Notes under the pieces: generated by a model
Databases searched by the model: none
Told to the model about the DNA's origin: nothing
What the model saw: only the letters and a program-made list of their open reading frames with translations
Shown here: positions 5,680 through 64,000 of the stretch, piece after piece
Layout of the letters: each line of letters begins with the position of its first letter
Position numbering within the stretch: the first letter of the stretch is position 1
Made by a program: the position numbers and the translations under genes
NCBI GenBank assembly: GCA_010093605.1
Contig: MU004193.1
Span: 689,520 to 753,519 of the forward strand
Reading direction: 5' to 3'
DNA: 64,000 bases
Source: Lophium mytilinum
Lineage: Eukaryota

Positions 5680-5704
5680 TATGTTGCCTTCACATGTCTA
5701 GGAA

Positions 5705-19010: not shown

Positions 19011-19255
19011 GATCTATACGCTAAGGCTATTACTAAGTTCTAGCAAGCTAGTAGGATTACGTTATTCTACCGCCCTAATATTCTAGCGGCGGCGGTAGAA
19101 TAGGCTTAGCAGTCCTCTATAATATAATTAGCTTAAGTAAACTACTAGTTTTTATAACCTCTAGCCTATAGAAGAATATATATTACTAGCCTTATTAACT
19201 ATTCTATAACTCTAGGTAAATAATAGGTTAGTAAATGTAAATACTAAGGGTAGAT

Positions 19256-19457
19256 TATTACGGACTATAAGAGGTAAGGCACGGAGCACAGTATTAAGTA
19301 AGGAATAGGGTGTATTTATAAAGATAAAGTTGCGTAGAGGTAGAGGTTCTATACGGCGTAGGCTAAATATAGGCTAGAGGTGTAAAACCGCGCTAGCGCA
19401 CGGGCTTATATAATATAGCTAAGAGTATATAATATATATAGAGCTAGATCTATTATA
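19256..19457 (-). repeat. 3' LTR (RIPped)
   Basis: 202 bp, colinear with 26936-27137 and 27340-27541; TG..CA ends mutated to TA..TA. Confidence 0.95.
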
Positions 19458-19470
19458 CTACCCCCCCTAA
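19458..19470 (-). promoter_or_regulatory. Polypurine tract (plus-strand primer) of the retrotransposon
   Basis: C7 run at 19461-19467, i.e. GGGGGGG on the minus strand, immediately upstream of the 3' LTR. Confidence 0.8.
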
Positions 19471-19799
19471 ATAAAAAAGAAAGGCTATAGAAAGAAAAGG
19501 CTATATAAAAAGAAAAGGCTGTATAGTAAGGCTATAGACTTAGGAAAATAAAATAAAATACTAAGGAAACGTAGTTATAAGTAATTAAATAGGAATTATA
19601 TAAGAAAGGGGCGTGCTTACGGCATTATAAAGGTAGGCGTTCCTATTAAGATAGCTTAGCTAGCTAGGTACAGTAGAGAATCTAGATTTTAGTTAAGTTA
19701 TAAATAATATTATAATATTACTATATAAGGTGTGTAGTTAGAGTTAATAAACACGCGCGTTACAGATTATAAGCGCGCGTTTATTAAGGACTTACTACT

Positions 19800-24110: not shown

Positions 24111-26750
24111 TTTAACCCGCTTAAATATTATTACTAAGAGAGGTAGCTAAAATAACTAACCTTCTTATCTGTGTGGATTCCTTATTTTTATAGTATTAGA
24201 CTGCTTTAGTAATAATACGCCCTAGATTACAACTATAATCTAGAACTAAGTATTTCCTAAGTAGCTCTAGTATTAAGATTAGCTATATCCTATAAATAGT
24301 CCTCCTGCGCCTCTAGATAAGATAGGAGTGTTAATACCTACTTTAGTAGGGGCTAGAGTAAATATAGTAGGGGCCGTATATATAAATAGAGCATATATAA
24401 ACAGGGGTATATATATAGACAGGGCGTATATAGATAAGGCTAGAGCTAGAATTATAATATTATTAGGGTACATGCTAACGCTATATAGGGTAAGTGTAGA
24501 ACGCTCTATAGAATACTACTAGTTAGTAGAAGTATAACTAATAAGCCGGCAGCAGAAGTAATAGTTCTTATTTATAAGCTAACGCTTTTAATTATCTATA
24601 AGGCGTTCTAGAGCTAGGCGCTGCTAATTAGTAGAGATATTAATAGGAAAGTTTATAGCTTTACGTATTAGTAGCGCAGACATCTAGTAATTCTAGCTGG
24701 GCGCATTTATTATATTCTAGCCTTATTCTTAGCTCCGGTTATTCTAGTAGCCTTAATTCTAAGAGACCTAGTTCTAAGTAGCTTAAAACTAATCTATTAG
24801 GGTCTAATTAGGGTTCTAGTTAGGAGGGTTCCACGGGCGGTTACCGCGGTAGCCACCGCGGTAGCTGTTATTAGTCTAGGAGTTAGTAGGCTATTAGCTA
24901 TACTATCCGGGCTAGTTATATAGTTAGTAAGGCTAGGTATAGTTAACTATAGCCTAGTCTAGAAGCTAGTTATAGTAAGTGTTAATAACTTTATATCCCT
25001 TTTTATAATATTTTCCTAGGACGCCCGCAGGCTTAGTAATACTAGGGCGGATCTTTGCCTTTAGCGCAGTAATATTCTAATAGTGTTCTTAGTTTAGTAG
25101 TTATACTATAAGCGCTTAGTATTTTATATAGAATGTATTAAGATTATTATTACCCTATATTAGTTAGTTAAGTTGCTAGAAAGTAATAGCTTTAGAGTTA
25201 TATAGCAGGTTCTTAATATTAAGGCGCTTAATAGCTTTATTAAGAGTGTAAAAGGGCTAATAGCCTATTATCCGCGCTACATAGTTACTAAGAGGTGTGC
25301 CGGTAAGGCATATGCTAAGAAAGTAGAGGCGGAAGCCTTTATTATATTAGTAGAGGTAGCTACTATAAGTAAACTTACTAAGGACCTAGTAATACTAGGT
25401 AATATATTTAGCTTTATTACTATTATACTTAGGGGGGTATAGTATAGTCTTATTCTTATTCTAATTAGCTTATATTCCGCAGTTAATATTATGCGGGGGT
25501 AGTAGAGCACTATTAGGTCTAATAAAAGGTAGTATATATAATTAGGGGGCCCAAATTAGATTATAGGTACGGAAGTCCTTATTATTATTACTATTACTAG
25601 AATTAGAGGGGGGTCCGCCGCCGCCTAAGTATATATAGGTCTGTTAACTATAGAGGGGCTTATTAGGGCGGCGGGGTACTAAGGGTTAGCGTTAGTAGCG
25701 GTTGCGTTTGCGGCCGCGTAACTAATTATAGCTAGGTAGAATAGAAGGGTATTATTCTAGCTTAGCGCCTCCCTTACCTGTAATATAGGCTATAAGCTTA
25801 TATTAATAGGTTATAGTAGCGGCAAGTTATATAGTAATATTATTAGGGGGTAGGCTATTAGTATAGGCTATAGGGCTAGGAATAGTAGTGTTCTAGAGGT
25901 TATTAATATAGACCTTAGTAGTAGTAAGGGCTTTTTTAATGTTCTTAATATAGGCTTTAAGCTTAGCAATACGCTTAGCTAAAGCCTTGCCGTAGGCCTT
26001 AAGCTTAGTAATGCGCTTTACTACTATTATATTAATAGTATCTATCTAGGCAGCAAACGCTGCTATATTAGCAACGTGTTTATATATAATAGTGTCTTTA
26101 GAGTTTCTAGCGTAGATAGTATTATCTCTATCTTAGACGGCATTGTTGCGGTTATTATAGAGGTTAGATAGGTTGGACTAGTATTTAAATTTTATATTAG
26201 TAATAGTCTTTTCTAGATACTTAATATTATCTTTTATGGCTAGAAGGTAATTATCTTATTGCTTAATTATACTATAAGCTTACTTATTAAGCTTAGCCTA
26301 AGCCTCTATAGAGGCCTTATTACGCTCTAGGCGGTTATATAGTTAGCGGATCTTAGCTTTATATAAACGGGTTAATTTAAAGGCTATTACCTTATTTTTA
26401 GTAATAAAGTCTATAAAGGCTTTAGCGTTAGGGACCTTATATATAACAGGAGCTTTATTAGCGTCTTACTTATTAATGGTGGAGTAGTTAATAAGTTTAT
26501 TAACTTTAAGAATAGAGTTCTTAAAGGCGCCGGGCATCTTAGAGTAGTAGACGTGGCTACTAGGGTTAGGTTAATTAAAGTGTTCCTAAAGTTTATTATC
26601 TTTAAGGAAAGTGTTATCTTTAGTAAAATTATCTTAGGTGTTATTATAGCTGCGCGCGCGCTGTAAGTTTCTAGTAATTATCTAAGATTCCTCGGCGGCG
26701 GTGTTCTAGAAGTCTTAAGTTAAGGCCTAGAAGTCTAAAAGTATAAGAAT
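24107..26750 (-). pseudogene. gag: gag relic, long, with N-terminal coiled-coil-like part and C-terminal Zn-knuckle; probable -1 frameshift into pol
   Basis: Position between the 5' LTR and the protease. Zn-knuckle-like TAC TTC TGC TGC CGG CTT ATT AGT TAT (de-RIP CFxCRLxGH) at about 24535-24565. Likely end GGG TTA AAC TAA at 24118-24107, overlapping a GTTAAAC slippery-like heptamer. The 5' limit is approximate. Confidence 0.65.
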
Positions 26751-26923
26751 AGTACACTATAAGAGGAGATTATAGAGCTTCTATATATTAGTTATACTAA
26801 GGGGTTTAGAGTTATAGTTATTAGCTATAGTATTAACAGCCGCGCGGGATAATTATAGGGTGTTGTAGTTCGCTAGCAGTAGATTTATAGTTTAAGGACT
26901 TAGTAGAATAGTAGCTAGGTAGA

Positions 26924-26933
26924 GCAACTTTAT
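26924..26933 (-). promoter_or_regulatory. Putative self-priming primer-binding site
   Basis: GCAACTTTAT (26924-26933), 2 nt inside the 5' LTR, is the reverse complement of ATAAAGTTGC within the LTR (27004-27013). No TGG tRNA-type PBS is present. Confidence 0.7.
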
Positions 26934-26935
26934 AG

Positions 26936-27137
26936 TGTTATAGACTATAAGAGGTAAGATATAGAGTATAGTATTAAGCAAGAAATAGGGTGTATTTATA
27001 AAGATAAAGTTGCGTAGAGGTAGAGGTTCTACGCAGCGCAGGCTAAATATAGGCTAGAGGTGCAAAACCGCGCTAGCGCATAGGCTTATATAATATAGCT
27101 AAGAGCATATAATATATGCGGAGCTGGATCCATTATA
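26936..27137 (-). repeat. 5' LTR (RIPped)
   Basis: 202 bp beginning TGTTA; followed by the TSD TAGAT. Confidence 0.95.
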
Positions 27138-27339
27138 TAGATAGGGGTAGTAGTAGTATACTTCTTAGTAGCGGGCTTAGTAATAGATATACTAGAAGAA
27201 TTCTTACTAACTATAGTAGTAGGTTTCTATCTATACTACCTTACTTACCTTTATAAAGAGTAGCTAAGAGTTCTTAATAATCTAGAAAGGTTTATAGGCT
27301 ATTAAGAGTAAGGCTCTATAGATAGTAATACTAACTAGG

Positions 27340-27541
27340 TGTTACGAACTACAAGAGGCAAGGCACGGAGCACGGTGTTAAACAAGGAACAGGGTGTATT
27401 TACGAAGACGAAGTCGCGTGGAGGTGGAGGTTCTACGCGGCGCAGGCTAAATACAGGCTGGAGGTGCGAAACCGCGCTAGCGCACGGGCTTACGTGACGT
27501 AGCCGAGGGCACGTGACATGTGCGGAGCTGGATCCGTCACA
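27340..27541 (-). mobile_element. Solo LTR of the same family, nearly free of RIP, own TSD CTAGG
   Basis: TGTTACG...CGTCACA, 202 bp. CTAGG at 27335-27339 and 27542-27546. Retains CpA, TpG and CpG sites that are TpA in the other two LTRs. Confidence 0.96.
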
Positions 27542-27960
27542 CTAGGCTATTATATTTACGGCCGCTAGATATAAGTAAGCTTAATAGATATAAGGGCGAC
27601 TAAGTAAGCTAGTATAATTATAGCGCGTACCGCGCGGACGCTCTATTAAACCTTTAATAATAAAGATAGGGCGTATAAGGCGATAGGTACTTAAAGAGTT
27701 TAATAGCTTTCTAGGCATAAATATTACTATTATAGATTAATAATAGCTAGATAGTTTCCTATATCTACTATTAATATAGTAGTAGAACTATATTTATATA
27801 GAATAAGCTATCTATAGTAGCCCCCTTAATATTACCTAAAGTTATTATAGCTAAATAGAGAGATGCTGCTAGCGCTATAGGCTATAGATAGAGTATAATT
27901 AAGGCGGGTATATAGCTAGAAATACTCTTAAAGAGTTATATTATAACTAAGGCTATTATA

Positions 27961-28345
27961 CCGCTTAGAGCTATTAAGGATTTTAGTATAATTAAGTTTA
28001 TTATCGCGCTACCTAGTAATATTAAGGACTTTAGTGTAATAAGGCTATTGCGCCGCCTAGGGCTATTAAGGATTTTAGTATAATTAAGGTTATTATCGCG
28101 CTACCTAGGGATATTAAGGATTTTAGTGTAATAAATACTATCGCGCCGCCTAGGGCTATTAAGAACTTTAGTATAATAAGGCTATTACGCTGCCCTAGGC
28201 TATTAAGGACTTTAGTATAATAAAGGCTATTACGCCGCCTAGGGCTATTAAGGACTTTAGTATAATAAGGCTATTGCGCCGCCTAGGGCTATTAAGGACT
28301 TTAGTGTAATTAAGGTTATTATAGTGCCGCCTAGGGCTACTAAGA
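27961..28345. repeat. Minisatellite, about 8.5 units of 44/45/48 bp
   Basis: Consensus CCGCCTAGGGCTATTAAGGACTTTAGTATAAT(T)AAGG(C/T)TATT(ATC)GCG; unit lengths in order 48,44,48,45,44,45,44,48. Confidence 0.9.
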
Positions 28346-28844
28346 TATTAACTATAATCTTAAAGTTCTGCCTATAACTTTAAATATATTACTATTAATA
28401 AGCTAGGGCGTAATAAAGGTTATAGAGCTACCTAGGTCTTTAGAGTATTTATTCTATTAGTAGAGTAAGTAAAAAAGAAATATAAATAGAAAGGTAAAAA
28501 GAGAATACATAACTAAGGGGATTAAACCTATTAACTATTATATAGTTAGTTATAAACTAGGTAGAGATATAATATATAAAAGATTAGAGATTTTAGTATA
28601 CTTAGAATTACTCTTTAAGTATTAATATAATTATTAGTTTAGTATATATAGCGCTTATTAATAGTTAGATTATTTATTATAGTAGTAGAGAAGAGACTAC
28701 TATCTACTTACTATCTAACTAAGTTTATATTTTTAGATAGATAGCAAAATAAACTACTTATATAGACTAGTATAGCCCGGTTAATACTGCCTTTAATTTA
28801 CTAGCTAGGTATAGTAGCCCTTTAAGGCTTAGCCCTTTAAGGCT

Positions 28845-29220
28845 TGCGCTATAAGAAAATTACGCTATAAGGCGGCTCGCGCTATAATAGAATCCCGCTA
28901 TAAGGAAATTACGCTATAAATAATTGCGCTATAGAGGCTTACGCTATAAAGAGAATCCTACTAAGAGAGAATTAAGTTATAGATAATTGCGCTATAGAGA
29001 CTTATACTATAGAGACTTGCGCTATAGAGACTTATACTATAGAGGGAATCCTACTATAAAAGAATTAAGCTATAGATAATTACGCTACGTAGACTTATAC
29101 TATAAGGGTTCGCGCTATAAGAGAATTATATAATAGAGACTTGCGGTACGCTATAAAGACTTATAGCGCGCTATAGAGACCTATATTATAGAACTAGCGC
29201 TATAGAGACTTATACTATAT
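28845..29220. repeat. Degenerate ~15-bp minisatellite (GCGCTATAGAGACTT-like), possibly a coding pentapeptide repeat on the minus strand
   Basis: Many (A/G)CGCTATA(A/G) cores at about 15-bp spacing. The minus-strand unit CTA TAG CGC AAG TCT could de-RIP to P-Q-R-E-S. Confidence 0.75.
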
Positions 29221-32200
29221 AGCTATAGATATAAAATATATTATAATAGGTAGATTAGAGGTAATAAGCTAGTATTCTAATATTATTATTACTAATATTA
29301 CTATACTAACCCAAGTCTACTTTATAGTGCTAGGCTTACTCTTAACTTTCTCTATTTATAATGTAGGCTAGTAGATATAAATTAGTAATTTATACTAAAA
29401 AGGCCGGCGTTTTTAGTCTAATAGTAAAATAGTTATTCTTATAGTAGTAGATAGTATAGTGTAGATTAAGTAGTATCGCGGCGTATATAGGCTAACCCGC
29501 TTTTACTAGAGCCTTAGGCTATTAAATTAATTAAGAAATTATGCCTAAGTTAGGGGATATATATTGTAAATAAATTAAATACGCTACTTATAGTATTATA
29601 GAAGTTGTATTATTAGATTATATAGCCCGGGCAGGGATTAATAATTTATAGATAAACTAGATAAGATAATACCTATACTAGTTTATTAGATAGTACTAGG
29701 TATATACTTATACTTAATAGATTATAGGTAAAGGGGATTACTAATATTATCTATAATTATATAGCTATACTCTCTTTAGGTATAATATTTAGTATATATC
29801 TATAACTAGTAATATAGTATTCTATAAGCTATTATATAAAGGCGTAGGTAATAGTAAGTATAGTTTTAGAGGTCTAGTAAATACAGGCGGATATTATAAA
29901 GAAAGTGCCTAGATTAGAGTTTTTAATATAGTATTAAGGTAATATTAGCGCGGTAAAATACTTCGCTAACTAGTCTACCTATAGTTCCCCTAATTTTAGG
30001 CCTAAGATACTATATACTAGAAAGTAACCTAATTAAAAATAGTAGAAGTAAGGTAGCTATAGTATAAATAAAATAACCTATATACTAGTAGAATCTTACT
30101 AATTTCTAGACCCTATAATTCTTAGTGCCCCTAACTTACTTAGAGTTAGATATACCTTACTAGGAACTTTTAGTAGTATTAGTTGCATTTATAGGGTTAT
30201 CTACTTTATAAGATAGAGCTTAGTAAGAAGTAAGTATAGTAGAAGAATTAGGTATTTAAGAAGCTGGCTATATATAATAGGAGTGCGCGGGGGCAATAGC
30301 GCTAGTATAAGCGCGGCCTTAAAGGGTTAAGCTTTAGAGAATAGAAGCTTTTTTAGAAGGCTAATAGGATAGGCTTTAGATCTAGGGCGGTAGGGTTCTA
30401 GTTCTTACACTATTACTATTTTTATCGCCGGCGTTATATTCCTCTTTCTTCTTCTAGCTAGAGGTACTTATATCTAGCTCTTTATCTTCTATCTTATCTT
30501 TATTACTAGAAGCAATAACTAGTAGTATAATTACTAATGTACCGGCGGGGACTATACTAATTAGTATTACTAGCGGAGAGAAAGGGGAATAACCTACTAA
30601 AAGAGTAGTTAGTATATCTAGTATACTAATATTCTATATAGAATCTATTAAATAGTAGATATATACTATTCTAAGCTTATATATAAGTACTAAATCTAGT
30701 CCCCTTATTTATACTTATAGTTAGATAGTAAGTATATACTCTAAATATAATAGAGATATTCTAATTTAGAATCCGCCTATAGTAATTACTTATTATTAGC
30801 TCTAATAGAGTAGAGAACTAAGACGGGAATTTAGTTATATTTCTACTTTAGAAACGCTAAGAAGGGTATAGTCTATTAAAGAAGTCTCTAATAGTTAGTT
30901 CGCCCTACTAACCTTAAAATATAGGCGCGTGTACGCTTATAAAGAGTAATTTAAAACTTAGGTTAATAGTAAAGGGCCTTAGATTTATAGGCAGTTTATA
31001 ATAGTAGGTTTAGAATAAGCCCTAAGTATAAATTTAATATTAGTATTAATAGATCTAGTAGAGGTTTATAATCTAGCTTTTAGACTCTATTACTACTGCT
31101 AGTTAGCTAATTATTCTTAAAGTCTATACCTAACTTATAGAATTATATTAATACGTCCTCTAGATCTTCTATATAGTAGGCCTTTCCGGCTAGCTTACTA
31201 TAGTTACGTTTTAGGTTATTCCTACCTCTACAGCGGCCTCCGCCGGGCCTAGTAGTCTTACTAAAGCTACTAGTATAGATACTAGGCTGCATATTATAGA
31301 TAGTAGCTATATATTTATTTAAGCTATTACTAGAAATTAGTATAGAGGTAAGCGCCTAAACTAGTATAATATATACTTCTAATAAAGGGTTTAATAATTA
31401 CTTAGCCTAAATCTAAGTAAGAATCTAGAAGTAGAGCTAAGAGGAAAGATATTACCTAAGTAGGACTGCGTCCACTAGCTATAGTAGAGTAAGTAAGAAA
31501 CTTAGTATACTAAGAATATACTTAGATAATAGTAAGAAGCCTCTAGATTAAAGGAATAAAGTAGAGGGGGAGGTTAAGGCTGCTAGTAGTAAACTATACT
31601 AGAGTTATAAGTTAATAGTAGTATAGTAGACCTAAAAAGCTACTAGTAGGGGTCTAGTCTAGCTATACTAAGCTAGAGGGCTAAAGAGGTCTAAATCTAT
31701 TTAGTATAGAGAAGAGAGTTAAAGTAGTAATATTATTATTCTTAAGACCGGGTCTAATTACTACTAGATTATAGGGTTATAGTATACTAAATTATAATAA
31801 TAACGCCCTATATATGCGTGTAATATTAGTAAATCCTTCTAGTTTTAGTACTAGCTTTATATAGGCCTATAGGTATCTACTATTCTAGAAATTATATATA
31901 ATATATATTATATATACTTGCCTTCTAACCCTTACTAATAACTCTAATACTCTCTACCTCTACTTCTATTACTACTTACCTTTAAATTAGCTAATTAAGT
32001 AGTTTATTTATTATTATAAGTTTATGCTAGCCTTATAATAGCCTTAGAATAGACTACTAGTAGCATGTAAAGTTAGAAAGTAGTATTAACCTAATATTAG
32101 TATATTAGAATAGCTACTTAGAGTTAATTAGCTATAGGATAACTAGTAAGAAAGTAATAGACTAAGCTACCTGCTAGTAGAATTCTAAGATATATTTAGA

Positions 32201-35200
32201 AGAGGAGACGTAGCTTAGAATAGATAATAAAGGTCTTATAATAATAAATCCGCGTTAGTTTAGTAGAATACCTACTTAAAGTTAACCCGCTATTAGAGTA
32301 TTTATACTATAAGGTTCTTATTATATTATTATTACTACTACGTTAATAATATTAGGAGGCCCTTTAGGGCGTGTAATACTAGAAAAGGGCATTAGTTACC
32401 GGGGATATAGCGGTAGCCTATTAAGAGGATATTGCTTTTACTATTAGAGGGTCTTTAGTTAGCAAGGAAAGCACCTTATTAGTATACTAAGTAAGCTACC
32501 TAGAAGGGGTTATAAGAGGTAGTAATATAATTATAATAGTAGAAGGTATAAGGTAATATAGGCTTATAGTATACTATTAAAAGTAGCGCACTTTTACCTT
32601 AAAAGAGCTCTTAATTAATAGTAGACTAAGCACGTAGCTAGAAATAAATTAGGATAGTATATAAAATAATTATAATAAGAGAGGTTATATAGTAATATAA
32701 ATAATAGATTAGCTTAGATTATATTAGGCCTTAATAAGTAATAGCAGCCGCAGTAGCTATTAGAGGTTATAGTAGTAACCCGGTAATATTTCTTATAATC
32801 TAGAAGTAAGCTAGTAAATTAGTATTTATTAAGGGGTTAGCTTTTAGAGTAATCCGCAGTAGTATAGTAATCTAGTAGTGCTAGAGTTAGATAATTTAGA
32901 GTATATAAGAGGGTTTCTTAACGCCCCTATACTCTACCTTTTATACTCTACCTTCTCTAGTAATAATTAGCTTTAGATTTAATACTTTCTTAAGCTCTTA
33001 TCTTTCGCGCCTAGCTATAGCCTACTTTAAAAGTATATAAAGGCCCTCTTTCTCTTATAGCCTTACTACTATTCTTTCTTCTTTTAACCTTTCTTTTACT
33101 TAGTATAGAACTAAGTAGTTAGGCGTATACCTTTCTAATTCTTTCTTATTATTTTAACTTAGCATCCTCTTACCTCCTTACCTTATATTAACCTTAGACT
33201 TACTAGATATTACTTAATCTCTTCTTATTACTCTCTTAGTATACTTATTCTTCTTATCTTATAGCTTTACCTTTATTACCCCCCGCCCTCTCCTATCTAG
33301 CGCATTTTAGTAGCCCCGAGTATTAGGTTGCACTCTTTAATCTATTCTTACCCGTAGGCCTAATATCTATACTATAGGCTTATATTTCTAAAGCCTTATT
33401 AAGCCTCTATCTCTACTCTAATCTAGTCTAGGTAAGTATTCTACTATCTAGCTATATCTTATCCTTTTAGTTACGCCGCTAATTCTAGGCAGCTACTTTT
33501 TACCCTCTTTCCCCTTAGCCGCAATACCCTTAGTCTAATTCCTGCTCGGCGCCTATTAATAATAGTATTATATAATACTTAGCCCGGTGTATATACTATA
33601 GGGTTTAGAAAAACTATAGGACTTAAAGGCGGGCGTTGCAGTAGTAGTAATAACCTAAACTAGAGTAGTTATAGTTAGGCTCTTATAAAGAGGCATTATA
33701 TTAAATATAGAACTAGTATAGGTAATCTTATAAGATTCTATATAACCTATACTTATATTAAGGGGAATTTACTAACCTACTATAGTTTATAAAATAGAGG
33801 ATAAGAAGATACTAAAATATAGATAAAGGAGTATTAGCGGAAGCTCTTATAGTAGGTAACATTACTATCTAAACGCGTCCGCAATAAGCTCCCACCTTAA
33901 TAGGGCTATTAACCCTAATAGCCCCTCTCCCTATACTATTATTTATTAACTAGGCTTTACGCTTAATAGATACTAATTAAGAGTTAGTAATTCTTCGGCC
34001 GTCTATAGCTTAATAAGCTACTTAGCTGCATATAGACATAAATTTAGGAGGCTATTCTTAGAAATAGTATATATATAGAGTATAAATAATCTAGAAATTA
34101 GAACTATAGTCTCTAAGGTAAGTTCTATTTACTTTAGTTTAGGCTAGTGGGCTAATACTATTCTATATAGCCCTTAAAATAGCACCTAGAATACCTATTA
34201 CTATTAAAGAAAAAACTAGTAACTATAACCTACCTATTAAGATAGGTTCTAGCTCTAGAGAGTTAGACTTTAAAGTAGACATAGATAATAAGAATTTAGA
34301 TAGTCTTCTATAATAGCCTCCCGCAATAGCCTTCCGTAATAGCCTCCTACTTAACTCTACTAGCGCGCATTAGTTACTTCTCTACTATTAAAAACTATAA
34401 TTTAAGGTTATAATTCTTATTACTCTTAAATATAAGCCTATATTTTTCCGGCGTTACCGGACATTAATAGTAGTATAATTACCCTCTTAATTACCTACTA
34501 CTATAATACCCCTTATAACGTGCAACTAACTAAGCCTATCTAGCTTTAGCGCTTCTATTATTCTATACTCTATAGAGTAGCCCTCTTAACTACCTATATA
34601 TAAAGTAACTATAATAGAGCGCGCTTATATAATAAGTTCTATTAAGGCTAGAACGCTATTAGCCTACTTATACGCGAGCCCCTAATATAGATACTACCTA
34701 GGCCTGCAGGTAAGAAGTATATAAAAAGAAGAAGAATAAATAAGAGCTTAAAAGTAATAATAGTAGAAACGCGCTGCGTGTATATAGGCTATTACAGTAA
34801 ATAGAAATTAAGCTTAAGAAAATAAAAAGAAATTATTATTCTATAACTACACCTATATTACTAGCATTACTAGTAGGCTCCTTTTTATTATCTATAATAT
34901 TAAATCCTTATAATTCTTATAAATTCTCTTAATAGATGTATCTATTAGCCTGCTATTAAAGAAGCTATAGCTTTTGCACCTAAAAATAGATAACTTATAA
35001 TACCGCCCGTTGCCTATTTAAACGCCCTTAATTTCTATTAAATTAAATATTAATAACCTTTTAATAATTTCCATCTAATTTCTATATTATTAAAGCCTAC
35101 AACCTACGCCTACGCCTGCGCACGTAATACTATATTAGCTATAATTCTTACTATAATTATAATAGTAGAAGGAAACACGGCACGCTATATAGCTCTAGTT

Positions 35201-46879: not shown

Positions 46880-47770
46880 AATGTCTAAAAATATATTAAG
46901 AGAAGATATAGAGATAGGCGCACTAGGTTTATTCTTATACGCATTTCTAGTCTCCCGCCTAAGCTAATCTAGAATAGAAGGTAAAAACCCCGCCTATAAA
47001 ACTATCTTAATAGTATAATATATAGAATTAATAATTAATCTAGTTAATTCCCTATAAGAAGCGCGCTAGTATATTAAGGGATTGCATGCACTATTAGGGT
47101 CTATAGAGTAAGCTACCCTTACCTAAGGTAATATTACTTTAGAAGTTATAGTACTGTGCGCTCTAGCCCCCTAAGATATACTAAGCTAAATAATACTAGA
47201 ATAATAGGCATCTTATAGAAGGGTATATAGTGCTATTTATAATACTCTTAAATATACTATAGATCTTATATAAGGCGTAAACTTAAAAAAGTATATAGAA
47301 GGGCTAGATACCTAGAGGCTTAAGCTAGTAAATGCGTATAAAATTATTAGCGGAGATTTCTCTATTATAGCTTAGGAGCGGCGAAAGGCTACTATAAAGA
47401 CGCGCGCTCTAGCCGCCTAAAATATTCTAAATTTAAGTATACTAGAATAACTAGCAGCTTATAGATAGGTATATAGTACTATTTATAGTACTCTAGAATT
47501 TACTATAGATTTTATGCAGGGCGTAAACTTAGAAGAGTATATAAAAGAGCTAGAAGTTTAGAGGCTTAAGCTAGCGGAGGCCTATAAAATTACCCGCAGA
47601 GATTTTATACTTATAGCTTAGAATTAACTAAAGGTTTTTAGAAAGAAGAATAAGTCTTAGCCTAAATACTAAGGAAGAACTTAAGACTTAAAGAGAAGGC
47701 TATATAATAGAGTAGATATCGCGCAAGATACTAGAGGAGGACTTAAGACTTAGAGGGAAGACTATATAGT
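46880..47770 (+). pseudogene. RIPped gene relic containing a tandem 82-codon (246-bp) helical repeat
   Basis: GCTCTAGCC at 47160 and 47406. In-frame de-RIP units ..ALAxQ..LEQxAxYRxVYxxIYxTLExTxDxMQGVNLEEYxxxLxxQRLELxxAYEIxxxDFxxIAQ. Confidence 0.65.
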
Positions 47771-53619: not shown

Positions 53620-54650
53620 AGCTATTAAGTATTACCGCTGCAGAGTATTACTAGTCGCGTTGCCTAGGGTAATAGTTAGCTTTCTACTTATTCTTATCCT
53701 TATTCTTATCCTTATCCTCATCCTTATTCTTATCCTTATCCTCGCTGTTAACCTTCTTATTTTTAATAGCTGTAGCCTTAGTATTATTCTTATTCTTAAT
53801 AGCAGTAGTAATATTAATTCTCTAGAAGCGTAAGGTTACTGGCTAATATATTAGCCGCTACTTAGTAAGTCTAAACTAGATAGTAGACTTACTAGCAGCC
53901 TTAGTAGCCTTATCTACCTTAGTCTTATAACTACGTTTCTTTAAGCTACTGTTCTTAGTAGACTTACTAGTAACCTTACGGCCTTATCTATCTTAGTCTT
54001 GCAACCGCGCTTCTTCTAGTTTTATAACCGCGTTTCTTTAAGCTACTATTTTTAGTAGACTTACTAGTAGCCTTATAGCCTTTTCTACCTTAGTCTTATA
54101 ACTACGCTTCTTTTAGTTTTATAACCGCGCTTCTTCTAGTCTTATAACTACGCTTCTTCTAGTCTTATAACTGCGCTTCTTTTAGTTTTACAACTGTACT
54201 TCTTTAAGCTACCCTTCTTACCTTTAGCCTTACTAGTAGGAGGCTTGCGCTTACATAGAGTAGTAGTATTCTTAGCCTTAGAAGTCTTAACCTTAGAAGT
54301 AGTAATATTATTATTAGAGGTAAGAAGTTTATTATAAGCTATAGTAAACTAGTACCCTCTTTATTACTAGCCTTATTAGTAGCAGCCGCCGCTACCTTAC
54401 TATAAGGCTTATAAGTAGTAGAAGTCTTAAAAGTCTTTAGAGTCTTTAGTAGAATAGTAGTATCTTTAGTAAATAGCTTAATCTTAAGCTTAGCCTAGGC
54501 GTTAGAGGTAGACTTTAGTTTACCTATACTAGTAAAGCTAGTAAGCTTCTTATAGTTAATCTATAGTAGATAGTAAGATCTATATGCATTAAATAATAGA
54601 AGAACCTTAACTAAATATAATATTCTTAAGTTCTTAGTATTTACGCCTTA
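53620..54650 (-). pseudogene. RIPped gene for a fungal Myb-like / histone-H1-like basic protein with tandem AT-hook-like KKRGRK repeats and an acidic tail
   Basis: After a TAG acceptor at 54561 the frame reads INYKKLTSFTSIGKLKSTSNA*AKLKIKLF (de-RIP IDYEKLxxFTGMGKxKSxSNAWAKLKxKL). It continues with PKTPKT and TPRKRKPP, then about 8 copies of AAG AAG CGC GGT TGC/TAT AAG ACT at 53920-54205, and an (ED)n tract at 53690-53745. Confidence 0.7.
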
Positions 54651-55739
54651 GTTAAGATAGTTTTACTATAGATTTTACCTTATCTAACTATTACTACTAA
54701 ATTATACGTACTTTATAGTTATAGCTAGAGATTAGCTACTACGCGCAGGGGCGAGTATAAAGGAGAGGCGGTTGCAAAGCGCGTATTAGATAATCTAAGG
54801 TTAAAGATAGCAGGGAAGCTATAGATATATAATTAAGGAATATAGTATAGTTTTATAGTAGTAACTTAGGAATTTAGAAACTTATAGACTAAACCCTACT
54901 ACTAAAAAAAGAAGACGCTAAAGGTAGAGCTAGGGCTAGAAGGGAATAAGGAAATACAGGTATTACAGAGCTAAGCTTAGTACTTAGCCCTCTCTAAACT
55001 TCTACTAGAATGTCCTAATATCTAAGTATATACCTTGCACTGCCCCTTTAAAAGCTGCTGCGTAGTAAGTATTTAATACTTTAAAGCTAATAGGGCCTAA
55101 GTACTATATCTACTCTTAATTTAATAACGCTAGAGCTTTATATAGTGTTACCGCCTAGAATATAGAGACTTAGAATTTAATATAAGGTACTTGCGCCCTA
55201 AAATACCTAACTTACTAGCTATACCTATAATGGCCGAAACGGGTTTATATATTATTAGAAATAAAAGCTAGAACTTTATAGATAAATAGGTAAAGAATAA
55301 AACTTGCATTTAATACTATAAACTAACCCGATTAAAGTATAGAAGGGCGACTATTTTATAATATTACTCTAAGCTTATCTACTATATATCCTCTATCTTT
55401 ATATAGCTAGTATAAGATATATTCTATTATTTTTCTTGCGAATAAATCTATATAAAGGGAAGAATAATCTTAGATAGGTATTAGGATCTAGATTACCTCT
55501 TTAAGGGCTTTATAATAATTTACTTCTTAGTAAGATAGCTATATTTCTAGCTATAGTAAAAGCATTATTATTTCTATATAAAAAGTAACCCAAATAATAA
55601 TATTAACCTTTTTAGGGTAAGAAATTAAAGATACTAATATATTATATTATCGCGGTTCTATTATAAACGGATTAGAAGAGAATTATTATTATTACATCTT
55701 AACTATTCCTCCGCTCTTATTATTAGACACGTTCGGATA

Positions 55740-56350
55740 GTAAGCTAAGAATAGCACTTAACCCGGAAGGAATAATACTTATTACTAAAGAGGTTAATAG
55801 CTTTATTAATCTAGTTAAGGTTCTTAAGAGTATTAATAAAGATAAGGTATAGAATATATTTACTACTCTAGTATTTACTAATATTTATAGCTTAAGTAAA
55901 TATAATAACTTTCTTCTAATATAATATTAGTGGCGCTTAGGTAGATATTACGCGTGCTTAGTAACGCATTTCTATCTAATAGCGAGAAAACTCTACCTAA
56001 GAGTAATAGAGGGGGTAGACTAAGAAAAAAAGCTAAGCTACGTTATAGCTAAGAACCCTCTACTAAAGATAAAGAGCCCTACTTAGATACTAATAGTGGC
56101 GACGGTAAAAAGAATATATAGCGCCTAATTACTAGTCTAGAAAAGCTACTATATTCTACGGTACTCTAATAATTCCTTAGCAGCCGAGGTAATAGATATA
56201 TTAATAGCGCTAAGTTCTACTTATAGGCCTTACTAGAAATAATAGTACTTCTACTAAAAAATGCTAGGTTAAGCACTATTAATAATATTATCCTTCCGGC
56301 CTATAAATTTACATAGTATATTACTAAACGCAGCTAAAGTATATATATCT
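55740..56350 (+). pseudogene. RIPped ORF relic with a single AT-hook/NLS-like motif
   Basis: AAT AGA GGG GGT AGA CTA AGA AAA AAA GCT AAG at about 56005-56037 de-RIPs to NRGGRPRKKAK, followed by an acidic stretch. Confidence 0.35.
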
Positions 56351-57779
56351 AATAGTGTTTTACTATACTATTAGTTTATAATATTATTTAATAGACCTTT
56401 CTATTTATTAGAGGCCGTCTTAGTAACTATATTAAATTCTATATTGCGGTAAAGTTTAGTAATAAGGTAATCTAGGCGGTTAGAGATTCTTAATAGTAAA
56501 TTAGTACTAATATTTAGAAATACTTCTATCTAGGTAGAAGACTTACTAATTTTATAACTAAATTTAGTAAGAAATGTCTCTTTATTCTTATAGAGCAACT
56601 CTTAAAGTATTAGTAAGACGCTAAATCTTAAGGAAACTCTTCTAATATCTCTTAGGCTTTAATATTAGTTTATATTTATAGGGGCCCTATAAGATAAAGC
56701 TATATAGTATTTATATTAGTTATAGCTTAGAGAGTAAGCTAATAAGTGCGGGGCGTTTAAGCTTAGATAGTAAGTGCGCTAAGTCTTTATATACCTATTA
56801 TCTAGGGAGGATTAGAGTTCTATAATTAACTGCACTAAATTCTATTCCCGCTAATAATTTAATAAGCTACCTAACTAACACGGCTTAAGCTTCTATTACG
56901 CTTAAGTATTAGGGGTAAGGATTAATTTAAGGCTTAAGTATTAGTGCATATAGCAGGCGTAGAAATAAATATCTTACTTTAATATCTCTAACTTCTTCTA
57001 GTTTCTTAATTATATATCTTAATACTTATAACTATAAGTGTTTTATATATGCGCTAATTTAATTAGGCGTAGAGATATAAGAGGAGAGCGCATAGTAGAG
57101 GGCTTATAGATAGAATTAATAATATTTATATATTAAGAGATAAATTCTTATAGAATTATAATGCGTGCTAGAGGTATATAGGGCCTAAAGTAAGTATATA
57201 ACTTATAAGGGCCTTTATAGTGCTTTTACTTAATAATATCCTAGTAGCTCTATCTATTATTCTTATTCTCTTTAATAACCTTCTTAATTATAATTATCTT
57301 ACGTGCCTTTAGAGGCTTTACTATACCGCTATTAGCCTTTAACTTTACGGGAGACTTAAGCTTAGTTATTAGCGCCCTATCTACCTCTCCCCCCTAAGAA
57401 GCTATATTTAGTAACGCTAGGCCTTATATATAAATAAAATAACTAAGATCTATATATAGATATTTAAATAGAGAAAGGCCCGGCGGCGTTTTTAATACTA
57501 TAGAAGAGGAAATTAAGAGAGGTAAATAATTTACTTATACTATAAGAGAGGGAAATCCGTAAATATAATTAGCAGAGAAGTTTATTAACGTAGCGGGTAC
57601 CTACCTATAGGTACTAAACCTAAGTCTTACTTCTATAGCCGTTTTACCCTACTATAGAAGTTTATAATCTATACCCGCCTTATATAAGATAGCGTTAGCC
57701 TTAAATTGCCCCCTCCGGGCCTGCTACCTATTAGGTCCTCTTTATTAGTATTAGAACTAGTACCTAACTAACTATAGGC

Positions 57780-58075
57780 GTCTAGAGGCTAGGATTTATA
57801 TATAAGCTAGCCTAGATGTAATTAGCCTAGAAATAGATAGATATTATAAGATTTACCTAGGTATATAGTTAAGATTTATTCTTACTATTAGTTTATTATC
57901 TATTATAAACTAATAAGAGCTTATAGTTATCTAGAGGGCTAGAATTTACCTAGAATCCGGCCTAGAGTTAAGTAGCCTAGAAATTATTAGATATTGCGCT
58001 ATTTACGCCTATATATAGTTAAGATTTTTACTATTAAGTTTATTACTTATTATAAAAATTAATAGGAGTTTATAG
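57780..58075. repeat. Diverged tandem duplication, ~150-bp unit x2
   Basis: Shared anchors TCTAGAGG(G)CTAG, TAGCCTAGAAAT, TAGATATT, TATATAGTTAAGATTT and TATTATAAA recur at about 150-bp offset. Confidence 0.65.
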
Positions 58076-59739
58076 GCCGCGTTCTATACCTACTATTCGC
58101 CCTTATTAGTACTGCTAATAACTATATATTTTAAAAGTTCTAGACTAATTCTAGTTATATAATATAGGAGTTACTTTATAAGAAGAAGAATATATATATA
58201 TATTAACTATACGTGTTTTTAAATAAGCTCTATTACTTAGCCCTTCTACCTTAGTATATTCTTTACCCCGCTAGTACTTTACTATAGCTTTATTAGCTGC
58301 TTAGCTAAATATTATAATATATAGCTTAATTCTAACTCTAATACCTCTACTATCTCTAATAGCTACCTTAGTAGCTGCTTGCACGCCTATAGTAGAGCCT
58401 AAGCCGGCGCTTCTATTTAAGCATGCGCCTATAGCGGCCTTACCTACTATATCTATATCTACTAACGCGTCTACTATTCTATATATTCTTATTTCTAAGG
58501 TAGAGAGAATAGCTTTCTATACTACTAATTAGTAACGCATTCTATAGAACTAGTTAGCTATAGAAAAGACTAAGTTAGTATATACCCTAGAGATGCTAGT
58601 TAGAAATAGGTAGTAGTTATTTCTTAGATATAGTATACTACTAAGAAACGCCTTATATATTAGGCGTATTATAGAGATAGAGTTAGGCAAGTAGAAGTAT
58701 AGAAAGGACTAGTGTTTAGCCTATTAAAAGAATAATAATAAGTATTAGGTATACTTAAAGTAGGGCCGCAAGCAGGTATAATATCTAGGTAATACTTATA
58801 CTTATTATAGAGTAAGATTCTATACTAGTAGCTATAGCCTATCTACGCGGAAGAAGTAGAAATATAAATCTTAGGTACCTACTTAGTTTTTAAGCGCAAG
58901 AGGTTAGGTATATAGAATAGACGTTTAAGAAATTAAACTATTTTTAAGCCTTAATTAGCCTATACTCTAGTATAAGAACTTAACCTAGTTAAGAGCTATA
59001 TTAGTAATTAGCCTACTAATAAAAAGCTTTATCTACTATATTTTACTCGCCCTTTACTAGAAAGAGAGCCATGCCTATTAGCGGATAGTCCTTGCAATAT
59101 TATACTAATTTCTAGAGCGCGTAATGCGTAGGTAGAGGCCCCTAAAGAGTATTAATAATATAGGCCTTTCTATTAGGTAGGTAATATATTTATAGAAGGG
59201 CTATATATAGTATTACTATAGTATTATATAGTTCTTTTATTATGCGCAATATATATATACAGCCTGCGTCCTAAAATAGAAGTATAAGATAGAGGTAATG
59301 CGACTATTTTTATACCTTATAGTTATTATTCTTACGTCCGTATAAGTAGTATATAAACCCGTGCTTCCCGTATATCTAGCGGAAAGACTTAAAATTACTC
59401 TTACCTATCCGCTATGCCGCTAGATTTTACGCCTATACCTTATCTATCTCCTTAAGCTTTATAGCTAGGTAAGTTACTAGCTACTTTAAGGCCTAGAAAC
59501 TAATATTCTCTAGCTTTCTATCTTCTAGGGGTTACTTATCTAAGTTCTTAGTCTCTTATAGTTTAGAGCTTCTTAACTATAGTAAGGGCAGCGCGCCTTA
59601 TATCTTATATTCTTAGCGCGGCGTTTTTCTCCCGCAAGCTAGTAATCTATCTTGCGCTACTTTTAGATCTAGGTAATAATATTATTATATCTCTACTTTA
59701 AGTTATCTCCGCTAAGCTACTATAAAACGGCCTTCTAGT

Positions 59740-60060
59740 AGCTAAAGAGAAAGAAGGCGCGCGTAAGTAAATAGGTAGATTAGTAATAGGCAATAGAAAA
59801 TAACTTAGTATAGAATATAGAGTAGAATGTATAAGAGTAATAATAAATCTAACTATACGCTTCTTATTAATACTACTACCTCTATAATATATTATAGTCT
59901 AATTTTTAACCTAGAAGGTATATCTATATAATATATAAATATATAGAATTTTTCTTAGCTATATTTAAGCGCGTTTAAACGCTTTATAGTTGTAATATAA
60001 GACGCAACGTATTTATAATACTATAACGCGTGTTTTTTCCTATTATAAAATCTCTTATTC
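59740..60060 (-). repeat. Inverted, order-permuted copy of blocks B and A from 18520-19010
   Basis: The minus strand reads B (60060-59834) joined directly to A (59830-59740). Confidence 0.85.
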
Positions 60061-60199
60061 TAAGGCTACTAGAAAATCTAAACGTCTATCTTATTTAACT
60101 CTAGAACGCGCGGCGCTATATATAATAGAACTATAAGGTTTTTATAATATAGTTATAGTTCTCTAGTTCTACTAGGTACTACTAATACCTTTTTAGTTA

Positions 60200-63100
60200 A
60201 GGTAGTATAGGTATAGCTTCTTTCTACTAGCGCCTTTAGTTAAAGTAGTTCCTAGGCATTATAAATTAAACCTAAAGCGTATTTCTTAAACTTCTAGTTA
60301 GTACTTATATATATTATATAGATTATTAGAAATAGCTACCTAAAAGCGTTCTACTTTTACGCTAACTATTACTTAAGATTCTTTAGCGACTTTATAGTCT
60401 ATATTTCTATTAGTTGCTAAATTTCTATATAATCTAAAGATGCATTTACTAGATCTAAGGCGTTGTAATTATTACCCCTTAAGAATTACCTAATAGTAAA
60501 TTAACTCTTCTTAATCTATTCTAAGATAAGTTTTTAATTATTATTTACGTCTTAGCTATTAAGCTACTTAGATCTAACTAAATCTACTAAGTATATATGC
60601 CGCCGAATATTTATACTATCTAGAAGGCGGCTATTAGTGTCCCCTTAACTGCCTGCGCTGTAATCTTAACCTAAGTTAACTATAATCTAATAGATTAGAT
60701 TACTTTATAAGAATTGCGGGTTAAACCTAGTATAGCTTATTAAGCGCCTATTTACTATATAGGTTATAAGATAGTATAGTATTTCTATACTATTTATAAT
60801 ATACTATAGGCAGGTTAGTAGCTTAGGCTATAGTAAAAGTTTAGTATCCGCATTTATATTATTCGCCGCTAATAGTATTAGAATGTCTCCCTTGCTCTCG
60901 CATATAAAAGGATATACCTTATTCCGCTAAATTTCTATAGCTATAAATAAGATATAAGTAGCCGGGGATTACTTAAATATAAAATGCGCAATCTTTTGCG
61001 CTATAGAATTAGGCTTAGTAAATATTATATATAACTTTCTAGTACTACTATAGCTATAAACTATAATATAAAGGGATGTCTATAATATACTAGATATATT
61101 TATAAATAGAAGAATCCGGCTCTAGATATATAAGTTATTATTATTAATAAAGACACGGTTAAAGAAATATAACTATAATAAACTAGATAGTAGACTAATT
61201 TATAATATGTCCCTTGCGGAGTTAGTCTAGGTAATAGTTATAGGTAGGCTTTTTAATGTTTTGCATGCTCTAATCTAGACCTAAGGTCTTATTTTTTAAA
61301 CGCTCTAATATAGCTTCTAGAGCATTTACTAATATATATCTATATATTCCCTATAGTATTCTAGCTAGCTCTTAATTTTCGCGTAGTAGTTATATAGTGC
61401 ACTATCTATATTTAAGGCTAACTATATTAGAACTATATCTACTTTAAGAAAGTCTTTACTAGCGGTTTTAACTAGCTAGTCCTATATTACTCTTACCCTC
61501 TTAAAAATATCTATATACTACTTAGTCTTTTTATAAAGCCTATATTAGAAGGCTCTTAGATTATTATTAAGGTTCTTAGTATACTTGCTAAGAACCTAAT
61601 AGCTCTCTTCTAACTAGACTTTTACGCTCCTAGCTTTATTCTAAGATTTTACTAACCTATCTAACTAGGTCTTTAGATCTTTAATTATAGCCTTAAGATA
61701 TAACTTTTACTAGAGTAGATTATTATAAGTAGGGATAACGGGGCTAATTAGTAGTAGGACTATCTTTATATTCTTAGCGTCTAGTAATTTCTATATTCTA
61801 ATAAACTTATAATTCTACCGGCAGGCTTCCTTATATAAGTTCTAATCTAAGAGTTAGTATATCTTTAAATAGTACTTAGCTATTATATAAGTATTATATT
61901 TATAAATTATATATTTAGTTCTATATCTTTTATATTAATAATACTATAGTTAGTAAATACCCGCAGGCCTATATAGATCTATAGCTAGCCTTCTATCTTT
62001 ATTATATACTTTCTTCTCCCTTTTAAGAGTATTCTTAGTTCTCTAAACCTTATCTTTATACTAATTTCTAAGAAAGTTACCTATATATAGCTTCTTACTA
62101 TTAGTACTATAGATATTCTAGTATTTCTTTTCTAAAACGTCTTTTTTAGTATACTCTAGGGTAGCGAGCCGGGCCCTATACTACTTAACTAGGGGTTAGA
62201 AGTTATAAAGCCGCAGTTTATCTTAAAGATTCTATTAGAGCTCTACTTTATTAGTTAGCGCATTTTTTAAGGCCGTATTAAGTTTTAAGACTACTCTAAG
62301 CTAATTAACTAGACTTAGCTTTAATAGACTCTTAATATTAGGAAAGTATTTATTAACTAATTCTTAAGTATTATAGCTACTAAGAGCATTCTTAATTATT
62401 TTAACCTCTTAGGTAATATTATTTTCTCTACCTTTTAATTTCTCTTTATTATTACTTATAATCTAAGTTTAAAGGTTATTCTAATATAGCGCGCGCCTAA
62501 TGGCTTTAAATACTTAATTAATAATAGCTATTATATCTCGCGTACTATTAAGATTATCCTTACTTATTTTAAGTTTTTATTTAGAGTTAGCTAGTCGGTT
62601 TCGCGCTTCTTTAGAAGTGTTCCTCGCTACTATAAGCTTTTTATCTAGGCCTTTAATATCGCCCTTAAGTATTATAAGCTTATTACTTTAGTTAACGTCG
62701 GCTAGTTAATTTTGCGCTTCTTTAGAAGCGTCCCTTACTACTATAAGCTTCTTATCTAGGCCTTTAATATTGCCCTTAAGTATTATAAGCTTATTACTTT
62801 AGTAGGTAGTAGCTAGTTAGTTTTATACTTTTTTAGACGCGTCCCTTATTACTATAAGCTTCTAGTTAAGGTCTACTAGGCCTTTAATATCGCCCTTAAG
62901 TATTGCGAGCTCCTTACTAATATCTATAAGGCGGCGTCGCGTTCTATTAAGATTAGCTTTAGTTATATTAAGTTCTTAGTTAATATTAGCTAGTTAGTTT
63001 TATACTTCTTTAGACGCGTTCCTTACTACTATAAGCTTCTAGCGGAGGTCTACTAGGCCTTTAAAATTATTCTTTAGTATTTTAAGCTACTTATTAATAT

Positions 63101-63430
63101 CTATAAGGCGGTATTGCATTCTATTAAGCTTAGCCTAAGTTATATTAAGTTCTTAGTTAACGTTAGCTAGTTAGCTTTACACTTCTTTAGACGTGTTTCT
63201 TACCGCTATAAGCTTCTTACTACTATTAGTAAGGCAGTCTTGCGTTCCGTTAAGATTAACCTTAGTTAATTTAATTACTTAGTTAGTACTACTTAACTAA
63301 TCTTGCAGCCCGTTAATAGTACGCCTAGCTATTAAAAGCTTAAGATTAACCTAAGCGCGTTAATTCTATAGGCTATTATATTCTACTATTATAATTACTA
63401 TAGTAGTCTAAACTTCTCTATATCTATATA
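60200..63430 (-). pseudogene. RIP-destroyed kinesin with N-terminal repetitive coiled coil and C-terminal motor (kinesin-14/Kar3-like architecture)
   Basis: Motor motifs in the expected order, de-RIP residues in brackets. IDIFxRVR at about 61500. YFF[D]RVF at about 61160. P-loop L[C]I[M]VY[G]YS[G]T[G]K[S]Y[TM]F at about 61025-61075. I[S]FxAxEIxRN[E]VY at about 60930. Switch I NRRxxxxT[G]FNPQF[SR]SN at about 60700-60750. Switch II IYLVDLV[G]S[E] at about 60570-60595. IKKS (cf. INKS) at about 60510. Confidence 0.85.
62590..63250 (-). repeat. In-frame coiled-coil repeats of the kinesin stalk: two 111-bp (37 aa) and two 177-bp (59 aa) periods
   Basis: Anchor CTT(C/T)TTTAGA at 62606, 62717, 62828, 63005 and 63182. 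The unit de-RIPs to ..KLxxLKGDIxGLDKKLxVARxxSKEARNRLA. Confidence 0.85.
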
Positions 63431-64000
63431 CTAATATCTAGAGCCTATATATAAGAGGAAAAGGGAGCTTTTTATTTCTACCTGCTACTTTCTAGGCTTT
63501 ATAAATAAGAAGTAATAAGAAAAAAGACTAATAGTATTATATAAATTTAAAAGTTATACTATAAATTTCTAATATACCTTAGCTATAAAAGAAGATAATA
63601 TTAGCACCCCTTTAGACTTTATATATATAAATAGAAAGCGAATTATATAGATATAGGTATTAGACTAACTTTCTATAGAAGAAAATATCTATCTACCTTA
63701 GTAATTAGCTTAATACTATAATTCTAATTATAGAGTTAAGCCCCTAAAAATAGTAAAGGACCTATAGCTTCTATAATTTCTAGTACTTAAGTATTTCTAC
63801 GCTTAAAAGCATGTAGAATAGAAGTAAAACGCCGGTTACTAGTAGGTTAAGTAGCAAGAATTAAACGCCGCTAAATATAATAGCCCTCTATATAAAGACA
63901 ACGGCCTATTAAGGTAATATTCTTACTTATAGGAATTCTAGAGCGCAGTATATATAATAAGATGAATAGTATAGTATAGACAGGATAATTATAATTTAGG

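Follow-up and report, generated by a model that had tools for sequence, protein, structure and literature searches.

Traces of a probable, highly divergent kinesin-like motor gene in an AT-rich, RIP-mutated block of Lophium mytilinum

A 64,000-nucleotide stretch of the Lophium mytilinum genome (contig MU004193.1 of assembly GCA_010093605.1, positions 689,520 to 753,519 of the forward strand), hereafter the window, holds at 60200-63430 a relic that is very probably the dead gene of a highly divergent motor of the kinesin superfamily, composed of a stalk with repeats followed by a motor with atypical nucleotide-binding elements and later degraded by repeat-induced point mutation (RIP). The window splits into a gene-bearing flank (positions 1-7000, GC 0.48-0.65 per kb) and a single AT-rich block (>57 kb, GC 0.25-0.38 per kb), which extends from ~7 kb to the window end and contains the relic. 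RIP is indicated by a TpA/ApT ratio above ~0.89 and a (CpA+TpG)/(ApC+GpT) ratio below ~1.03, and 60200-63430 lies on the RIP side of both dinucleotide thresholds and has a low GC, with values of 1.83 and 0.18 and a GC of 0.291, against 0.75, 1.18 and 0.538, respectively, in the flank at 1-7000. CpA and TpG are nearly absent from the relic region (49 in 3.2 kb vs 937 in 7 kb of flank). The relic sits in DNA with a classical RIP signature, and the locus is without function now.

Motifs of the motor were scored by ungapped, RIP-aware comparison with a kinesin-14 profile, and the null consisted of ~106,000 positions from the rest of the block on both strands. From the N-terminal side of the relic to its boundary, the features are as follows.

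61400-63330, minus strand: relic of a coiled-coil-like N-terminal stalk, ~640 codons long and sharing the frame of the motor core
62810-63217, minus strand: in-frame tandem repeat of 177 bp (59 codons) x 2.3, found by Tandem Repeats Finder (TRF) with 86% matches; 19 transitions and 7 transversions between units
62599-62904, minus strand: in-frame tandem repeat of 111 bp (37 codons) x 2.7, found by TRF with 84% matches; 8 transitions and 2 transversions between units
61334-61351, minus strand: candidate kinesin-14-type neck/beta1 junction, observed as GNI*IY and compatible with GNIRV-Y, in a frame shifted by one from that of the motor core
61149-61166, minus strand: FxFDxVF motif, observed as FFNRVF; 10.2 bits, 0 of ~106,000 null positions as good
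61032-61055, minus strand: P-loop (Walker A), observed as SYSSTRKL; 17.9 bits, 0 of ~106,000 null positions as good
60699-60722, minus strand: switch I, observed as NPQFL*SN; 9.6 bits, null fraction 5.7e-5
60564-60590, minus strand: switch II, observed as LVDLVRSK*; 16.8 bits, 0 of ~106,000 null positions as good
60480-60515, minus strand: weak resemblance to the beginning of helix alpha4, read as IKKS*FTIR*FL and placed at the right spacing by gapped alignment
60064-60479, minus strand: expected last third of the motor (L12/alpha5, beta8, alpha6), unrecognisable (p = 0.52 vs shuffles)
59802-60063, no strand assigned: dispersed-repeat fragment forming the 3' boundary of the relic, 82% identical to 18798-19039 on the opposite strand

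The FxFDxVF motif, P-loop, switch I and switch II lie in one minus-strand frame (the frame of position 63599), in the correct order and with kinesin-like spacing: ~117 codons separate the P-loop from switch I, and ~16 codons separate switch II from the INKSL-like element at the start of alpha4. The gapped alignment also passes through an EIY-like strand between the P-loop and switch I, and all gapped alignments stop at the alpha4 element (ends 60477-60528). Switch II, read as LVDLVRSK*, is wholly compatible with LVDLAGSER. For the Walker A consensus GxxxxGK[ST], the ancestors reachable by transitions only permit G-x-x-G-x-G-K-S at the canonical place, and switch I is compatible with NPQSSRS-[DGNS], in which SSRS is kept as an option and His is excluded. 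The presence of a kinesin-type motor core is confirmed by these four motifs, to which the alpha4 element adds a weak fifth and the neck candidate a suggestive, off-frame sixth. The initial annotation had described six or seven ordered minus-strand motifs in a gene not visible to the open reading frame (ORF) track; its ordered core is upheld for the four motifs in one frame, the later motifs are undetectable, and the invisibility is borne out by the ORF and hidden Markov model tracks, which show no kinesin, and by the raw Pfam scan, which has no kinesin match.

The core was located with a purpose-written aligner in which each codon is scored by its likelihood of descent from any codon of each amino acid, with C>T and G>A changes allowed at a rate mu and other changes at a small rate, and in which DNA is aligned to a profile with gaps, frameshifts and an intron state. 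Reference sequences were gathered by two routes: a back-translated switch II motif led to one giant-virus kinesin in viral contigs and from there to 120 kinesins, mostly kinesin-13, and a back-translated kinesin-14 neck motif led to 119 metagenome loci, 22 of which have an uninterrupted motor of at least 335 codons. Three profiles were used, namely kinesin-13-rich, kinesin-14 and pooled (pan-kinesin). Identical de-RIP freedom was given to the controls, which comprised further stretches from either strand of the RIP block, the opposite strand of the target and versions of the target with its codons shuffled.

With the kinesin-13-rich profile the target scores 33.3 bits, against a mean of 16.1 (standard deviation 1.8, maximum 21.2) for 56 control windows and 15.7 for the opposite strand; with the kinesin-14 profile it scores 28.7 bits, against a mean of 17.0 and a maximum of 22.3 for 57 controls. 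The target lies above every control in all 18 combinations of three mu values, three gap regimes and two profiles, and none of 150 codon shuffles reaches it (Gumbel p = 2.9e-6 and 9.4e-5). Under a context-aware RIP model the three profiles give 28.4, 31.4 and 35.7 bits, whereas the maximum of 38 controls is 18.3-18.7 (p 4e-6 to 7e-9); the highest of these scores belongs to the pan-kinesin profile, for which the control maximum is 18.5 and p is ~7e-9. Across these analyses the aligner places the kinesin core at 61172-60480 on the minus strand with 29-36 bits and an estimated p of 9e-5 to 7e-9. Under relaxed gap penalties the aligner skips hundreds of bases, and such extensions were disregarded. 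A beta1 candidate reading YIDIFKRVRV at 61526 was also dropped, being too distant from FxFDxVF.

Standard searches were performed on the raw translation. Pfam returns no kinesin match at E<=10 for 60000-63600 when all three minus-strand frames are read with X in place of stops, and the gathering threshold of PF00225 is not reached by the raw translation, whereas the RIP-aware profiles built here give 29-36 bits. The putative motor has 0 matches at E<=10 in a PDB sequence search, none at E<=1 among the 7999 candidates scored in a word-indexed search of 5.8 billion clustered proteins, and 0 at E<=0.001 in a full phmmer search of 1.84 billion representatives. No intact homologue was found in these raw-translation protein searches, which, given the RIP damage, exclude only close relatives of the ancestral protein (roughly at least 70% identity). 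A literature search for this Walker A variant returned nothing.

The residues of the core record divergence that precedes RIP. The transition-only ancestors of the P-loop are [GS][CHRY][GS][GS][AT][GR][EGKR][LPS], so that the Walker A glycines, the lysine and the closing Ser are reachable by reversing transitions, whereas the Q, T, S and final T of GQTGSGKT, four of its eight residues, are not. The fifth residue of switch I can be D, G, N or S and never H, as AAT cannot derive from CAY by a transition. Among the kinesin-14 P-loops in the fetched metagenome loci (n=72), 65 are GQTGSGKT, 6 are GQTGSGKS and 1 is GQTGAGKT. The six GQTGSGKS loci (L008, L022, L030, L058, L069 and L078) indicate that a closing Ser in Walker A is natural within kinesin-14.

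Twelve real kinesin-14 genes served as a positive control: they were subjected to simulated RIP and scored with leave-one-out profiles. Eleven of the 12, driven to a GC of ~0.28, retain 212-371 bits; the twelfth already has a GC of 0.20, received no mutation and retained 368 bits. When extra random substitutions and indels were added to five genes, scores fell to 195-299 bits at 5%, 140-252 bits at 10%, 65-141 bits at 20% and 20-80 bits at 30%, and only this last range holds the score of the relic. Transversions between repeat copies in the block, including the tandem units of the relic itself, amount to only 0.9-7.9%. Given this low local transversion level and the scores under simulated decay, a score of ~30 bits is too low to be accounted for by RIP plus neutral decay. 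These results show that a canonical kinesin plus RIP alone cannot yield the relic, and the protein had moved far from canonical kinesins before RIP set in. The initial annotation had regarded the P-loop (of GYSGTGKS type) and the switch I ending SRSN as deviations beyond the reach of RIP and the gene as a divergent paralogue, not a RIPped housekeeping Kar3/KlpA; the codon ancestors, the retained scores of the controls, the decay series and the low transversion level agree with it on all three counts.

Two explanations without a divergent motor were weighed against these data. One holds that AT-rich, low-information RIPped DNA produced the motifs by chance, aided by de-RIP freedom, and it can draw on the failure of the raw translation to match anything and on the wider choice of residues per codon that a de-RIP reading brings. 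The same freedom was, however, open to all controls, and none of the 56, 57 or 38 windows and none of the 150 codon shuffles reaches the target; moreover, three motifs are unequalled in ~106,000 null positions and all four share frame and order, which makes chance an extremely unlikely source. The other holds that the relic is a RIPped duplicate of the ordinary kinesin-14 of the species (the Kar3/KlpA orthologue) with no special history. RIP normally hits duplicated DNA, and a coiled-coil stalk ahead of the motor and a GN-IRV-like neck candidate are what such a duplicate would possess. This origin is nevertheless just as improbable as chance: the relic has 29 bits with the kinesin-14 profile where the 11 in-silico-RIPped genes keep 212-371, the five decayed genes still hold 65-141 bits at 20% substitution and reach 20-80 only at 30%, local transversion divergence is merely 0.9-7.9%, and transitions give access to the Walker A glycines, lysine and closing Ser but not to four residues of the P-loop or to the His of switch I.

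Upstream of the core, stops are least frequent in the stalk frame, at 51 of 644 codons, against 83 of 644 and 132 of 643 in the other two frames. Heptad periodicity is present locally, with a power of 5-9 in windows near 63284-62969, 62591, 61772-61709 and 61457, but shows no phase coherence over the whole stretch (p = 0.07). The initial annotation had placed the motor downstream of a long coiled coil; the low-stop stalk in the frame of the motor, the local heptads and the in-frame repeats speak for this. The neck candidate GNI*IY scores 10.6 bits (null fraction 4.7e-5) and lies 64 codons ahead of FxFDxVF, where the profile has 57 columns. Compared with GN-IRVxCRxRP, only the final R-P of CRVRP is compatible. 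Single-sequence RIP-aware scores average 21.5 +/- 3.2 against kinesin-13 (n=114) and 20.7 +/- 2.7 against kinesin-14 (n=22), the only two families compared, and the motor core is no nearer kinesin-14 than kinesin-13. A kinesin-14-like build is plausible from the apparent architecture and one suggestive neck motif. Of the earlier label 'kinesin-14-like', the stalk-then-motor layout and the neck candidate at the expected distance give weak support, and the core lends it nothing, scoring no better against kinesin-14 than against kinesin-13.

Several observations weigh against the reading of the relic as a dead stalk-and-motor kinesin gene. No standard tool recognises a kinesin, and the case stands on the purpose-written aligner and its controls. 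That stalk and motor were one gene is suggested by their shared frame only. The neck candidate lies in another frame and would need a frameshift or an intron that could not be defined, and it loses significance (p = 0.38) once the search covers all of the upstream region with no prior on position. An intron of the form GTAAAT...CTAAC...TAG bridging the neck candidate and the core was rejected, as it leaves too few codons. The last third of the motor also fails to appear: past ~60480 no motif score for L12/alpha5 (PYR.SKLT..L..SLGG), the SP strand or the LxFA helix rises above the null, and alignment of 60100-60560 to the C-terminal third of the kinesin-14 profile yields p = 0.52. None of the minus-strand windows further downstream stands out, the best near the locus having 16.0 bits vs 18.2 elsewhere. 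The microtubule-binding face may either have diverged past recognition or have been replaced or lost. Some 415 bp separate the recognisable core from the repeat fragment that begins at 60063, and the gene may therefore have lost a downstream part; the fragment could mark a truncation that hides it. The repeat pair 59802-60063 and 18798-19039 differs by 14 transitions, 10 transversions and 24 gap columns, and a second contig of the source sequencing runs matches 59834-60063 and represents a further genomic copy of the repeat fragment.

On the reading favoured here, the ancestral gene would have encoded a motor domain behind a long N-terminal stalk, a coiled coil that contained tandem repeats. 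Its Walker A, switch I and switch II would have been intact but atypical, Walker A being of the G-[YHCR]-[SG]-G-[TA]-G-K-S type and switch I ending in a residue other than histidine. RIP would then have converted most CpA/TpG and many other C/G sites, leaving dozens of stop codons. From the sequence we infer a C-terminal motor position, dimerisation and ATPase competence; in life the gene product probably dimerised, hydrolysed ATP and resembled a kinesin whose motor was apparently C-terminal.

Copy number and mobility were considered next to this reconstruction. Self-comparison reveals no second copy of the relic in the 64-kb window, only its internal tandem repeats and the flanking repeat fragment, and no other stretch of the RIP block scores as a kinesin. 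Two sequencing runs from one sample hold the stretch; both are possibly its source, and hence they are not independent. The contigs of both runs cover the relic without differing letters, and among the pieces listed, a list that leaves out 63, there is no other contig at least 80% alike and no variant letter over 60064-63430, a comparison that copies less than 80% alike would escape and that says nothing more about copy number. In raw Pfam scans no mobile-element domain appears in the six frames of 55001-60200 or the three plus frames of 19001-29000, a weak negative, as RIP hides such domains. The sole hit in these scans, to MxiM (E = 0.024), was set aside as chance. Judging by titles and abstract openings, none of the papers returned by the literature searches deals with a kinesin destroyed by RIP or carried by a Starship. 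The initial annotation had pictured a multicopy accessory motor on a mobile or accessory segment that biased transmission. The window offers no other copy and the listed contigs none at least 80% alike, and the RIP-hampered Pfam scans identify no mobile-element gene around the relic; the multicopy, mobile and meiotic-drive parts of that idea are unsupported speculation.

How RIP reached the gene can be approached through the distribution of the mutations, which across the 3.2 kb are as heavy as in the surrounding block and show no gradient toward the repeat at 60063; the evidence therefore leans towards direct targeting, and saturation via repeated leakage is possible. In Dothideomycetes, single-copy DNA beside repeats is known to be hit by RIP that spills over from them. 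The relic might accordingly have been a single-copy, dispensable, divergent kinesin gene, surrounded by transposons and killed by RIP leaking from neighbouring repeats over many sexual cycles, a scenario that can be held tentatively and that falls somewhat short of probable. The failure to find another copy, the repeat fragment abutting the relic at 60063 and the precedent for leakage in Dothideomycetes all favour it, whereas leakage does not predict a load equal to that of the block without a gradient toward the repeat, nor a stalk that is farther from the known repeat and yet more mutated than the motor ((CpA+TpG)/(ApC+GpT) 0.11 vs 0.33). Heavy, uniform RIP fits a direct target better than edge leakage, and it is here that a different origin gains from the same data: the relic as cargo or captured fragment of a mobile element (Starship-like or another repeat), multicopy, directly targeted by RIP and maybe selfish in nuclear or chromosome transmission. 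Its place within an AT-rich block of >57 kb next to a dispersed-repeat fragment, and its character as a divergent, apparently dispensable paralogue, are in keeping with such cargo. Against it stand the missing second copy in the window and among the listed contigs (at least 80% alike, over 60064-63430), the failure to find a transposase, recombinase or reverse transcriptase in the 15 kb scanned, which is weak evidence where RIP hides them, and the silence of the papers returned, judged by titles and abstract openings, on kinesins killed by RIP or carried on Starships. An origin as mobile cargo is unlikely.

The flank and the remainder of the block were also annotated. The genes identified in the flank are as follows.

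5708-6733, minus strand: nitronate monooxygenase gene
4039-5028, minus strand: Bax1-I family gene
1574-2685, minus strand: exons encoding a TLC domain

Among named homologues of the monooxygenase, the closest, with 82% identity, is from Mytilinidion resinicola; Glonium stellatum (65%) and Pleosporales rank after it, which places the organism in the Dothideomycetes. At the window edge, beside the TLC-domain gene, 152-979 on the plus strand is a 275-codon open frame with a GC of 0.65 and a product rich in Ser, Thr, Ala and Pro, which matches no Pfam family. Within the block, a positive GC skew is sustained for ~14 kb over 19000-33000 (+0.12 to +0.28 per kb) and flips to -0.24 at 33-34 kb, which points to one long element or to several that share an orientation. 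A ~210-bp repeat family is present in three copies (19240-19460, 26931-27137 and 27327-27544), with transition to transversion counts of 24:2 and 45:2, and is a clean case of RIP between copies. A local tandem duplication with ~245-bp units lies at 47158-47646, where the units are 78% identical and differ by 32 transitions and 19 transversions; at 53881-54729 there is a longer tandem array of low identity.

It is highly improbable that the relic is all that is left of a fast-evolving, lineage-specific family of accessory kinesin-like proteins in Dothideomycetes, with a repeat-bearing coiled coil, an atypical functional ATPase site and a remodelled filament-binding face, once multicopy on mobile or accessory DNA and acting on the transmission of nuclei or chromosomes before RIP; if it were true, intact members may survive in related fungi. 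The meiotic-drive reading would be of large significance if true and has no support here. Unless intact relatives appear, the relic is a curiosity and a useful demonstration of method: mutation-aware profile alignment, run alongside matched controls, can still retrieve from RIPped isochores gene fossils that ORF finders, Pfam and billion-sequence searches do not see. The existence of an additional, strongly divergent kinesin-like gene, albeit dead, hints that some lineages possess motors of their own which inventories miss. Passages of one published account (PMC8950801) describe the kinesin set of filamentous ascomycetes as small, numbering nine to eleven in Aspergillus nidulans and Neurospora crassa.

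Among known systems, the initial annotation had drawn its analogy with an accessory kinesin in a repeat-rich region, as represented by Kindr. The relic is dead, far from canonical kinesins and without known copies or a link to a segregating element. Kindr, by comparison, is an accessory kinesin-14 in a repeat-rich region that acts in the meiotic drive of maize Ab10, and it is intact, expressed and near canonical kinesin-14. Vik1 and Cik1 resemble the relic in joining a coiled coil to a strongly divergent motor-like domain. Their C-terminal motor-homology domain is, however, not known to have a nucleotide-binding site, whereas the nucleotide-binding motifs are the best-kept part of the relic. 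They are described as non-motor partners of Kar3 in the relevant passages of PMC8950801. With the fungal kinesin-14 proteins Kar3, KlpA and Pkl1 the relic appears to share a motor placed after a long coiled-coil stalk and a candidate G-N junction at the expected distance from FxFDxVF, such a junction directly ahead of the motor being typical of Kar3 and Ncd in the same passages (PMC8950801). It differs from them in a core no closer to kinesin-14 than to kinesin-13, in the sequence after GNIRV-Y, where only the R-P of CRVRP is compatible, and in the 37- and 59-codon tandem repeats of its stalk. Measured against the kinesin superfamily as a whole (PF00225), the relic departs from GQTGSGKT at 4 of 8 Walker A positions, lacks the His of switch I, has undetectable L12/alpha5 microtubule-binding motifs and C-terminal elements, and attains a RIP-aware score about one tenth of that of canonical motors after the same decay. 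What it has in common with the superfamily is the FxFDxVF motif, Walker A, a switch I compatible with SSRS and a switch II compatible with DLAGSE, in one frame and at kinesin spacing.

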